Positions 606 to 15,233 of a stretch of 15,350 nucleotides of DNA are shown piece by piece (positions within the stretch are counted from its first letter, which is position 1; each line of letters opens with the position of its first letter). Below the pieces are notes generated by a model. The model had not been told where the DNA came from and ran no database searches. It saw only the letters and a list, made by a program, of their open reading frames with translations. The stretch is from positions 1 through 15,350 of the forward strand of contig JAUWKS010000072.1 of the NCBI GenBank assembly GCA_030614005.1, written 5' to 3'. Origin of the DNA: Candidatus Heimdallarchaeota archaeon. Its GTDB lineage: Archaea; Asgardarchaeota; Heimdallarchaeia; JABLTI01. A program made the translations under genes and the position numbers.

Positions 606-3308
606 TTGATATCTAACTATAAAAAAATAACTTTGTTCATTATTTTTTGGTTAATGATATTTTTTACTGTGAAAGATCAAAGTATTGCTCTGGATAACAC
701 TACAATCCTTGAACCAAATTCAATGGCTGCTATAGAAAATTGGAGTTATAATCTTGGTGATGATATAGAATCATCTCCAACATTTGCCGATGTAAATAGC
801 GATGGTCTTTTTGATGTAATTGTTGGTTGTTCTGATAGTCGTCTTTATTGTATAAATTCTTCAGGTGAAAAATTATGGAGTGCTCCTGTGGCAGGTAAAA
901 TAACTTCAAAACCAGCTATTGCTGATTTAGATTCTGATGGTACACCTGAAATTATTGTTGGTTCTATGAATTTGAAACTTTTTTGTTTCAGTCATAATGG
1001 AACCATGGAATGGGTTTATACCACCAATTGGCATGTTGTGGTTTCTCCTACTATTGCAGACTTAGATGCTGATGGTACTTTTGAAATTATTGTAAGTAAT
1101 GCTGATTTTGTATATTGTTTAAGTCATGAAGGAAAATTGGAATGGAAGATTAGCACATTAGGTACTCATTCTTCTGTTGCTGTTGCAGATCTAGACAACG
1201 ATGGCACATTGGAGATTATTGTTTTATCGAGTCATGAAAATCATCTTTTTTGTCTAAATCATGCTGGAGGGATTGAGTGGGAGGTTGCTCATGGGTCCAG
1301 CTCTAATTATCTAATAGTAGCTGATTTAGATGCAGATAACACTTTTGAAATAATATTTGGAAACATTAATTCTGAAATTAGATGTTGCGATCATGAAGGG
1401 AATTTGGAATGGAGTTACTCAACATCTCAAGGTATTTATGCATCTCCTGCAGTTGCTGATCTCAATGATGACGGTGATTTAGAAATAATCATTGGGTCAC
1501 GCGACAATAGTCTTTATTGTCTTAACTCTACAGGTGGTGTAGAATGGATTTATACAACTGGAGCTGATATTAACTCCTCTCCGGCTATTGCTGACTTGGA
1601 TGGTGATGGAGTTTTAGAAGTAGTTGTAGGATCAAATGACAATAAGCTGCATTGTATATCCAATCTTGGCATACAATTATGGACTTTTACTACTGGAGGT
1701 GATATTTACTCCTCTCCAACTATTGTTGACCTCGATAGAGATGGCATTTTTGAAATTGTTTTTGGTTCTAGTAACGACTACCTTTATTGTTTGAGTTTCG
1801 ATGATGTAACCGCTTCAGGTGAAGCTCCTTGGTATTCTCTTGGTGGTTCAATATATAACACTGGACATATTGACAGTGATAGTGATTTATTAGATGACAT
1901 AACAGAGGATTTCTACAATACAAATCCAAATAATCCCGATTCGGAGAACGATGGTTTATCAGATGGCTTGGAAGTAATTATGTTTCATACTAATCCTCTA
2001 GATAGCGATACGGACGGAGATAATCTTTCTGATATTTTTGAAATAAACACTAGTCACACTGATCCAACAAATGCTGATTCGGACGGAGACGGTTTAAATG
2101 ATTACGAAGAGATAAACGATGGTGTTGATGGTTTTATCACTGACCCAAACAATGCAGATACCGACGGAGATGGTGTTTCTGACTTTCAAGAGCTTTTAGA
2201 TGGTACAGATCCTACTGATAATACTGATTTTCGCGGGGATATGCCGGTTTGGTTTTTGCCCACTGTTATTGGTTCATCCGTAGTTGTTGTGATACTGATT
2301 GCAATTAGCATAGCTTTATCCCGAAAGAGGAAAGTAACAACTGAGGGAGAAGAAGAACCTGAACCAGCAATTGATGAGATCAATCTTATTGACATCGAAG
2401 ACACTCCTGAATTAGAGTTTGAAGAAGAATCAACTTTAGAGATAACTCCTACTGTTGAATTTGATGAACTTCCAAAAATTCCTCTTGTTGAAAGCATAAA
2501 ATCGCCAGAGATTTCTTATATTGAAATTAATGATGATTCTCCAGAAATTCTTGCTGATGAAATTATTGAATCTCCTGAAATTACTGATGATGAAATTTCT
2601 GAATCTCCCGAGACCCCAGTGAGTAAAAGTAAAGCAACAATTTCTCACAGTTATTTGAGTGATTTAGTAAATGCTCAAAGTATTATAATCATCAGCAAAG
2701 ATGGCATTCCAATCTTATCTATGAATTTCAGTTTAGATATAGATTCCAGTCTTGTTGGAGGATTTTTAACAGCAATCACTGGTTTTGGTGATGAGATTTT
2801 CACTGGGAAACAACAATCTGAAAGTAGATTCATTCAAATGGGAGAAGAAGGAGGTTTATTCTGGATATTTGAAGGACGATTTGTTCGTTTAGCCTTGCTC
2901 TTTACCAATGCCCCAAATAAAGCTTTTAAGAAATCTGTCTGGGACACTTTGAAAAATTTCGAAAAAGCCTATCAAACTGAGTTGAAAGATTTTTCAGGCA
3001 ACGTTTCTCAATTTGAACCTGCTCAAAGATTGCTTGAAAAATATCTATCTATTCATTATCTTTATCCAATGAAGATAAATGTCCAAAAATTGGATGAGGT
3101 TGAATTAGCTGATAATAAGTTAAAAACAGTCCTTGACAAGTACATAGAAAACTTCAGTGAGGAAGTTACTCTTGATATTCACCAGTTAATTGAGAAATCA
3201 TTTAAAGAACTAAAGAACATCACGTATGATGAAATTCTCACTCAAATAATAACCTTTGTTACTGAAGATATTCTTATCCCTACACCTATTGATTTGAATA
3301 CAGAATGA
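606..3308 (+). CDS. Single-pass membrane protein: signal peptide, 8 FG-GAP/PQQ-like propeller blades, 5 TSP3-like Ca-binding repeats, TM helix, acidic linker, cytoplasmic longin/roadblock-like domain
   Basis: The 900-aa ORF has an N-terminal KK plus hydrophobic stretch, then 8 copies of SP.(I/V)ADL(D/N).DG..E(I/V)(I/V).G....L(Y/F)C....G...W and 5 copies of D(S/T)DGDG(L/V).D..E....T(D/N)P. TM is PVWFLPTVIGSSVVVVILIAISIAL followed by SRKRK. The C-terminal IIIISKDGIPI...LVGGFLTAITGFGDEIF...FEKAY...F.G.V..F pattern is recognised as longin-like. Confidence 0.85.
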   Translation: MISNYKKITLFIIFWLMIFFTVKDQSIALDNTTILEPNSMAAIENWSYNLGDDIESSPTFADVNSDGLFDVIVGCSDSRLYCINSSGEKLWSAPVAGKITSKPAIADLDSDGTPEIIVGSMNLKLFCFSHNGTMEWVYTTNWHVVVSPTIADLDADGTFEIIVSNADFVYCLSHEGKLEWKISTLGTHSSVAVADLDNDGTLEIIVLSSHENHLFCLNHAGGIEWEVAHGSSSNYLIVADLDADNTFEIIFGNINSEIRCCDHEGNLEWSYSTSQGIYASPAVADLNDDGDLEIIIGSRDNSLYCLNSTGGVEWIYTTGADINSSPAIADLDGDGVLEVVVGSNDNKLHCISNLGIQLWTFTTGGDIYSSPTIVDLDRDGIFEIVFGSSNDYLYCLSFDDVTASGEAPWYSLGGSIYNTGHIDSDSDLLDDITEDFYNTNPNNPDSENDGLSDGLEVIMFHTNPLDSDTDGDNLSDIFEINTSHTDPTNADSDGDGLNDYEEINDGVDGFITDPNNADTDGDGVSDFQELLDGTDPTDNTDFRGDMPVWFLPTVIGSSVVVVILIAISIALSRKRKVTTEGEEEPEPAIDEINLIDIEDTPELEFEEESTLEITPTVEFDELPKIPLVESIKSPEISYIEINDDSPEILADEIIESPEITDDEISESPETPVSKSKATISHSYLSDLVNAQSIIIISKDGIPILSMNFSLDIDSSLVGGFLTAITGFGDEIFTGKQQSESRFIQMGEEGGLFWIFEGRFVRLALLFTNAPNKAFKKSVWDTLKNFEKAYQTELKDFSGNVSQFEPAQRLLEKYLSIHYLYPMKINVQKLDEVELADNKLKTVLDKYIENFSEEVTLDIHQLIEKSFKELKNITYDEILTQIITFVTEDILIPTPIDLNTE
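771..1799 (+). repeat. Eight ~44-aa FG-GAP/PQQ-like repeats (predicted 8-bladed beta-propeller)
   Basis: The repeats are counted in the translation: ADVNSDG, ADLDSDG, ADLDADG, ADLDNDG, ADLDADN, ADLNDDG, ADLDGDG, VDLDRDG. Seven are followed by a G..(L/E)W motif; the eighth leads into PWYSLGGSIYNTG. Confidence 0.85.
1872..2231 (+). repeat. Five TSP3-like (DxDGDGLxD...TDP) calcium-binding repeats
   Basis: The units are DSDSDLLDD, DSENDGLSD, DTDGDNLSD, DSDGDGLND and DTDGDGVSD, each followed by T(N/D)P. Confidence 0.8.
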
Positions 3309-3330: not shown

Positions 3331-3436
3331 TGGTGCCGAGAGGGAGAGTTGAACTCCCGGCTCAGGAACCACAATCCCGAATGTTGCCAATGTATTTTAG
3401 AAAGAGTGCTTCTAACTAAATTTACACCATCTCAGC
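3331..3436 (-). tRNA. tRNA-His(GUG) with ~30-32 nt D-loop intron; CCA encoded
   Basis: Reverse complement: acceptor GCTGAGA/TCTCGGC, D-stem GTGT/ACAT, anticodon arm CGGGA-TTGTGGT-TCCTG, T-arm GGGAG-TTCAACT-CTCCC, then A73 and CCA. The D-loop region is 39 nt instead of about 8. Confidence 0.9.
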
Positions 3437-3462
3437 TTTTGTAATGGAGAATTATTAAGTGA

Positions 3463-3470
3463 GTATAAAA
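3463..3470 (-). promoter_or_regulatory. Candidate TATA box of tRNA-His
   Basis: TTTTATAC on the minus strand at -34 to -27 relative to G1 of the tRNA, the typical archaeal spacing. Confidence 0.55.
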
Positions 3471-3629
3471 GTCATTCGAAAGAAGTTGAAATTTAAATTA
3501 TTAGAGGTTTTAAAGATTCAAGGATTTCTTCTAATTCCTCTACTTTTCGTATTTGTGTTTCTTGAGTATTATTTGTCAATTTAAGGAGAAAAAAGTACAA
3601 AAAAAATTAAATTAGTTCCAAATTATCAA

Positions 3630-4130
3630 TTGTGCATATCATTTATAGCTATTCGACCACCAATGATTCTTGGTCCAGGTGATGAACCAGCTAAAGCTCT
3701 GATGGAAAATCTAGAAAAAGGACGTATAGTTCTTCTTCGAGGAGGGAAAGGTATCATACCAGTTGTTCATCCTAAAGATGCAGCTAGAGCACACTTATTA
3801 GCTTTAGAAAAAGCAACCGAATTTGACGGAGAGTCTTTCCATTTAGCAAGTTTTCAAGTTCAATTCAAAGATTATGCTAATACCTTCAGCAAAGAGCTTG
3901 GACTAAAATCAGTTAAAATGAAAGCACCTTATTCACTTCTTTATTCAATTGGTTGGTTTTTGGAAATTTTACCAAAAGAGTATGATATCAATCGTTTTAC
4001 TATAAAATTCCTCGGATCAAATACCAAATTAGATGTTAGTAAGATAACTGAAAAGTTGGGATTCAAACCCAAATATGGCTTAGAGCAAACGGTAAAAGAA
4101 ACTGCAGATTGGTACAAATCACTGAAGTGA
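3630..4130 (+). pseudogene. C-terminal half of an extended SDR (NAD-dependent epimerase / 3-beta-HSD-like); Rossmann fold and YxxxK missing
   Basis: AIRPPMILGPGD, VHPKDAARAHLLAL, GESFHLA and LDVSKITEKLGFKPKYGLEQTVKETADWY are typical extended-SDR C-terminal motifs. There is an in-frame TAA at 3582-3584 and no GxxGxxG or YxxxK in the short upstream stretch before tRNA-His. Confidence 0.75.
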
Positions 4131-15123: not shown

Positions 15124-15233
15124 AGACCCGTAGTCTAGTCCGGCCAAGGATTGGGGACTTTGAAAAAAGTCACAATTCGTTTGGGATTTTCAAGAATCCC
15201 TCGACGGGAGTTCGAATCTCCCCGGGTCTACCA
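15124..15233 (+). tRNA. tRNA-Gln(UUG) with 32-nt anticodon-loop intron; CCA encoded
   Basis: Acceptor AGACCCG/CGGGTCT, D-stem GTCT/GGAT, anticodon stem GGGGA/TCCCT, mature loop CT-TTG-AA, T-arm GGGAG-TTCGAAT-CTCCC, A73, CCA. The intron lies within 15162-15196; the best bulge-helix fit is 15165-15196. All registers give the same mature sequence. Confidence 0.93.

Follow-up and report, generated by a model that had tools for sequence, protein, structure and literature searches.

A tRNA-His gene with A73 and no encoded G-1 in a Heimdallarchaeia genome, probably charged by a histidyl-tRNA synthetase that does not need G-1

The window analysed here, a stretch of 15,350 nucleotides from a Candidatus Heimdallarchaeota archaeon that HisRS matches place in Heimdallarchaeia and in the genus of assembly JABLTI01 (which we take to be Gerdarchaeales; deposited labels are unreliable), contains a real, intact, intron-containing gene for tRNA-His(GUG) that has A73 as its discriminator and lacks an encoded G-1. 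With a probability of about 0.72, we consider that this tRNA is charged without G-1, in analogy to the systems of Caulobacter and Trypanosoma brucei, and not after eukaryote-style G-1 addition. Its recognition probably follows a rule that has so far not been described for archaea, and not the eukaryotic route. G-1 has been called a near-universal identity element, and archaeal tRNA-His is described as having C73 with G-1 either encoded or added; reviews likewise list C73 as the archaeal base and date the switch to A73 to early eukaryotes (PMC3245924). We found no report of A73 or a missing G-1 in Asgard or other archaea, in a literature search of incomplete coverage. New here are a phylum-wide tally of the two positions, a test of HisRS length with one exception, a case of U73, and the relocation of the gene in the window genome.

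The gene lies on the minus strand at positions 3331–3436 (106 nt with the intron, 74 nt mature, CCA encoded), as defined by ARAGORN after intron removal and by the orthologues. Its 5' exon (3422–3436, from G1 at 3436) comprises tRNA positions 1–15, ending in A14 and A15, and its 3' exon (3331–3389) positions 16–76; the 5' exon was delimited by the intronless orthologues of genomes G005 and G006 and by the fit to a BHB motif. The anticodon GUG is found at 3370–3372, next to G37 at 3369. TCTCGGC-A-CCA forms the 3' end and puts A73 at 3334, and position -1 (3437) is an A that is unable to pair with A73. Both of these bases had been pointed out in a first-pass annotation of the window, and both are confirmed. 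Position 73 is covered by public contigs of three studies (X1, X4, X6) and position -1 by those of two studies (X1, X2, X4), with no differing letter at either site, though some of these contigs may be the source sample. The annotation had named reads with C at position 73 as evidence that would speak against it, and none of the contigs carries this base.

After intron removal, ARAGORN calls a tRNA-His(gtg) with a complete cloverleaf and GUG anticodon. The acceptor stem has seven pairs, one of them G-U, the T arm is perfect, and the folding z-score of the strand (107 nt) is -3.8, better than 200 of 200 shuffles. ARAGORN and Rfam missed the gene in the unspliced window because of the 32-nt intron in the D-loop, which the annotation had not mentioned. 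The gene differs from a canonical prokaryotic tRNA-His in having A73 instead of C73, and in having neither an encoded G-1 nor a TLP in its genome that could add G-1 opposite C73. The A15:C48 pair, which had raised the suspicion of a degenerate gene, is real, but it is also present in the intronless orthologues of G005, G006, G008, G003 and G002, and even in G-1:C73 genes of other families (G315, G126). Since it is common to the relatives in this way, it is no sign of decay, and we reject this suspicion for the window copy.

The predicted intron (3390–3421, minus strand) occupies the non-canonical position 15/16, where we placed it because the intronless orthologues show a plain D-loop (A14 A15 Y16 G18 G19 Y20 A21). 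It forms an HBh' motif, in which D-stem residues G10–U13 and the end of the intron build the central helix; a bulge of 3 nt comes next, and then an inner helix of 5 bp. The central helix has all four pairs in three of four tRNA-His copies and three pairs in the fourth, and the inner helix shows a compensatory change in G001 (TTTAG/CTAAA to TTCAG/CTGAA). The insert thus has the 4-bp central helix, the 3-nt bulges and at least one flanking helix of an archaeal BHB tRNA intron, and the window genome carries two EndA genes. An enlarged D-loop in place of an intron was ruled out by the intronless orthologues and the motif fit; a strict hBHBh' motif deeper in the insert was ruled out as well, as it would leave a 15-nt D-loop and is absent in the other copies. 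Non-canonical D-arm BHB introns of Asgard archaea have been described that share the 15/16 site, the four central pairs and the inner helix, and that are missed by standard finders (bioRxiv 10.64898/2026.10.13.758758). The window intron shows no essential difference from these; the scoring used in that study counts HBh' as canonical, and the study makes no mention of His, the discriminator, G-1 or Thg1. D-loop introns at or near 15/16 were also seen in the tRNA-His of a G-1:C73 genome (L239, G085) and in a tRNA-Gly(UCC) of the window genome (G000:C16:14793-14901).

For a table of N73 and N-1 across Asgard archaea, as proposed in the first-pass annotation, we searched 399 genomes by pattern and also used a covariance model and loci that were fetched individually. 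Four families of Heimdallarchaeia (f1, f2, f4 and f6) have A73 in 48/48 tRNA-His genes; Ca. Heimdallarchaeum aukensis and endolithica, both with closed genomes, belong to f2. The G-1:C73 combination is found, with no exception, in 39 genomes from 14 families, among them f3 and f7, which belong to this class too, and all 39 C73 genes have G at position -1. Family f3 includes B3_Heim and presumably, with the same reservation about deposited labels, corresponds to Hodarchaeales; genome G133 is Ca. Harpocratesius repetitus. In f19, f21 and a single genus of f17, there are eight further genes with A73 and no G-1; the tRNA-His of G032 (f5) combines U73 with A-1. The counts exclude tRNA-His-like matches of bacterial or viral appearance and those of which just one end was seen (G137, G142, G153, G157, G159, G167, G169, G231, G254, G306 and the second gene of G126), and G279 and G280 are counted but less certain. 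An apparent A73 tRNA-His in G299 was a tRNA-Leu. The A73 state is ancestral to the four Heimdallarchaeia families, and the HisRS lineages of Asgard archaea seem to have departed from G-1:C73 on three or more occasions. In the window genome, 20 of the 29 other CCA-ending tRNA genes that were called also have A73, so that this base cannot itself mark His identity.

The window genome (G000; 3.6 Mb, 90% complete) encodes a single HisRS (L021/P0001, G000:C94, 493–501 aa). It scores 252 bits with the Thermoplasma enzyme (1wu7), 191 with the trypanosome, 111 with the E. coli and 101 with the human enzyme, and a structure model (pLDDT 93.6) gives the same order of nearest solved structures, 1wu7 and then trypanosome. 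The motif-2 loop reads RDETLQRGRVKEF and is not the AMT-like loop of the cytosolic type. The label "eukaryote-like" given to the gene by the annotation therefore holds for the base A73 and not for the partner HisRS. A HisRS phylogeny had been suggested along with an inspection of motif 2. In our tree, which was built without eukaryotic or Caulobacter sequences (the human comparison uses phmmer scores), the enzymes of all A73 genomes in f1, f2, f4 and f6 form one clade of the Thermoplasma/Trypanosoma subtype, also when the insertion and motif-2 columns are removed (SH-aLRT 99). A73 changes three times on the tree, compared to 22 times for shuffled labels, which shows clustering only. The subtype alone is not diagnostic, as the G-1:C73 family f20 and plant organellar HisRS belong to it too; a placement of f20 as sister of the A73 clade was not upheld after outgroups had been added.

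The enzymes of the A73 clade have an insertion domain enlarged by about 55 residues between motifs 2 and 3. The span between these motifs measures 203–209 residues in the clade of f1, f2, f4 and f6, 164–168 in the other non-C73 Asgard lineages (f19, f21, G127, G032), and 144–151 in C73 genomes, with a median of 144 in 130 outside relatives. It correctly predicted the tRNA state of 15 genomes that were read later, seven of them non-C73 (G011, G007, G009, G051, G127, G135 and G032) and eight C73. The exception to this rule is G130, which has an A73 gene and a HisRS of standard length (span 148), and the co-occurrence of A73 and enlarged HisRS amounts to just three or four independent events. An internal repeat as origin of the extra residues found no support by BLAST. 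In the T. thermophilus enzyme, the G-1 end of the acceptor sits in a clamp that the insertion domain forms with R115/R122 (PMC4357726). This arginine pair (R116/R123 in E. coli) is altered to T and K in the HisRS of the window genome, and the K is present in 112 of 119 close homologues. Among the A73 genomes of f2 and f4, around half retain R123. We rejected R116 as a marker of G-1 dependence, because it is missing in Thermoplasma and in the G-1:C73 family f3 too.

The U73 gene of G032 (L253, G032:C30:10846-10975, minus strand) has two introns and agrees with T. brucei at position 73. At a distance of 6 kb there is a HisRS that sits on a long branch and whose motif-2 loop (RDEDTKRTRLREF) is unusual. 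In G127, the A73 tRNA and an enlarged HisRS adjoin each other on one contig (L234, L263), whereas G126, from another genus of the same family, has a G-1:C73 tRNA and a standard HisRS (L202, L135). This difference suggests that tRNA and HisRS move or switch together as a pair.

We found no Thg1 or TLP gene in the window genome, either with Pfam or with an unfiltered profile of 12 Asgard TLPs; the best E-value of the latter was 0.43, which speaks against a divergent Thg1. Among the 82 Heimdallarchaeia genomes, including the closed ones of Ca. Heimdallarchaeum aukensis and endolithica, none has Thg1. TLPs are present in 16 of the 399 Asgard genomes, and in none of those for which A73 was read. 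Opposite A73, the TLPs of archaea would incorporate U instead of G (PMC3245924). The window genome thus has no genomic or enzymatic source of G-1, as is expected of a G-1-independent pair, and it contains an RNase P RNA. A T-1, C73 tRNA-His (L203, G306:C1:161784-161856) was observed on a contig, perhaps a mobile element, that also carries a TLP gene about 8 kb away; this pair represents the templated archaeal route.

The combination of no encoded G, no Thg1, an unconstrained position -1 and a remodelled HisRS is most simply explained by cleavage at +1 and G-1-independent charging. The tRNA would be transcribed with a leader, RNase P would cut the precursor at the normal +1 position, and EndA would splice the intron at 15/16. 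The mature tRNA should then lack a nucleotide at -1, and have A73 and an acceptor stem of 7 bp. The HisRS is predicted to charge this G-1-less tRNA mainly through the GUG anticodon and the acceptor stem, and the enlarged insertion domain may grip the shorter acceptor end. If the analogy to Caulobacter (PMC3064791) and T. brucei (PMC4338351) holds, the anticodon likely is the main identity determinant. The first-pass annotation had named two options, and the G-1-independent HisRS is the one that this inference supports.

Similar solutions are known from two other groups. As in Caulobacter crescentus and some other Alphaproteobacteria (PMC3064791), there are A73, no encoded G-1, no Thg1 and a HisRS with inserts. 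However, the host is an archaeon, the tRNA has G1-C72 and a 7-nt D-loop instead of the alphaproteobacterial G1-U72 and 9-nt D-loop with U20a, and the HisRS keeps Q118 and carries its extra residues in the insertion domain that separates motif 2 from motif 3, with no marked gain in the anticodon-binding domain. By these tRNA features, the pair of the window genome is outside the alphaproteobacterial clade, and the nearest named relatives of its HisRS in our tree (without a Caulobacter sequence) are of other subtypes. With T. brucei, whose HisRS is G-1-independent (PMC4338351; PDB 3hri, and 3hrk for T. cruzi), it shares the lack of Thg1 and of an encoded G-1, a residue other than arginine at the R116 position, and the HisRS subtype, as judged by the bit scores given above (191 vs 101 for human) and by the modelled fold (TM 0.70–0.75). 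The T. brucei tRNA differs by its U73, found only in G032 among the genes that we read, and the T. brucei HisRS retains R123 and is without the extra residues, roughly 55 in number. The eukaryotic cytosolic system of yeast and human (PMC3245924) has A73 and no encoded G-1 in the gene as well, but the system of the window genome is without two of its defining features, Thg1 and a HisRS of the cytosolic subtype with an AMT-type motif-2 loop.

The alternative that survives best, though we consider it unlikely, is that RNase P cleaves at -1 and the encoded nucleotide (A here, often U in relatives) is kept, the HisRS reading its 5' phosphate with any base. The phosphate does matter more than the base (PMC4338351), the HisRS of A. 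pernix accepts A-1 and C-1 (PMC9976931), and C. elegans keeps an encoded G-1 opposite A73. The -1 bases of the 48 A73 genes (T 26, A 19, C 2, G 1) would allow a U-1:A73 pair in 26 of them, and G032 has A-1 opposite U73. However, the other tRNAs of the window genome show a comparable distribution (T 15, A 10, C 6, G 1), so that U at -1 is not enriched (Fisher p 0.65, with kin that are not independent). Moreover, A-1 and A73 of the window gene are unpairable, position -1 varies within one genus (A, T, C), and the phosphate-binding arginine pair is altered in the HisRS of this genome.

It is distinctly improbable that an unrecognised or very divergent enzyme adds a non-templated G-1 opposite A73 in the eukaryotic manner, the other option of the annotation. 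A73 without encoded G-1 is the eukaryotic gene pattern (PMC3245924), TLPs do occur in Asgard archaea, and a decayed second tRNA-His copy of the window genome has G at -1. Against this stand the lack of Thg1 family members in all genomes of the class, the closed ones among them, the absence of TLPs wherever A73 was read, and a HisRS that is not of the eukaryotic cytosolic type and lacks the AMT-type loop.

This second copy (C94:20287-20402, minus strand), which also has A73, lies 3 kb from hisS at a site that is ancestral, being syntenic with G001 and G005. Its existence, the location of the window copy away from this site, and the 10% of the genome that may be missing could indicate that the cell relies on another tRNA-His, with the window copy as a silent or degenerate duplicate. 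We regard this as very improbable. It is the hisS-linked copy that is decaying, with two acceptor mismatches, G19 changed to A and loss of the TATA-like box that is present upstream of the same site in G001. The window gene is a relocated duplicate with intact stems and its own putative archaeal promoter (3461–3496, minus strand), with a TATA-like TTTTATA at 3470–3464 inside an upstream block that is conserved with the tRNA-His of the relative G010. In G010, the hisS-linked copy is deleted, and the only tRNA-His found resides in a 210-bp cassette with 89% identity to that of the window and encodes the same mature sequence. Together, these sequence patterns argue that the window copy very probably is the working gene, and all relatives of the family have A73. 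A separate canonical C73 tRNA-His, which the annotation had raised as a counter-case, was not found in the 90%-complete genome by ARAGORN, T-arm scan, BLAST or pattern search. That A73 is edited to C by 3' repair and then receives a templated G-1, the known archaeal TLP route opposite C73, is barely conceivable, as it would take two unknown steps plus the absent TLP, and CCA is encoded directly after A73.

The A73 of Heimdallarchaeia is a parallel to, and not a demonstrated source of, eukaryotic A73. Its distribution nevertheless bears on the timing of the latter. If a G-1-less A73 was already present in the heimdallarchaeal ancestor of eukaryotes, with A73 inherited and G-1 addition by Thg1 acquired later, the early-eukaryote origin of A73 (PMC3245924) would be overturned. 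We think this doubtful; it would need a reversal to G-1:C73 in f3 and f7 and a HisRS replacement in the line leading to eukaryotes. Several Asgard lineages seem to do without G-1, including four of the seven families of the class nearest to eukaryotes, and the three or more apparent switches with different HisRS enzymes are repeated natural experiments on the rewiring of tRNA identity. The organisms concerned exist as enrichments or cultures. Such a HisRS/tRNA-His pair could also be orthogonal in E. coli, like the Caulobacter pair.

The Asgard HisRS closest to human cytosolic HARS1 is that of family f3 (L143, L144, L146, L148, L149, L151, L152, L269), with 220 bits to HARS1 and 68 to GCN2, and it is a lead on the origin of eukaryotic HisRS. 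Since f3 has G-1:C73, the eukaryote-type enzyme is not coupled to A73, with the exception of the Loki-type genome G130 (L227, L273). G130 has an A73, T-1 tRNA-His and a HisRS that groups with f3, the most eukaryote-like combination seen; it has no Thg1 match. The HisRS of G098 (L276; family f12 of another class) is of the enlarged Heimdall type and sister to f1 in the tree, which makes a transfer between classes possible.

The surroundings of the window gene provided some further observations. Just upstream of the tRNA promoter lies a 5'-truncated gene for an NAD-dependent epimerase (3630–4130, plus strand; Pfam positions 162–237 of 240), and its truncation fits a rearrangement where the tRNA cassette arrived. 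On the other side, the stop codon of a gene at 606–3308 (plus strand) is 22 bases from the 3' end of the tRNA-His. Its 900-aa product is a secreted or membrane protein with an FG-GAP beta-propeller, TSP3 repeats, a membrane segment and an acidic linker followed by a C-terminal domain without Pfam match. Further along, a bacterial-type GlnRS (13107–15032, plus strand; 642 bits to E. coli GlnRS) precedes an intron-containing tRNA-Gln(UUG) (15124–15233, plus strand), and the window genome has two gatD-like genes above the cut-off.
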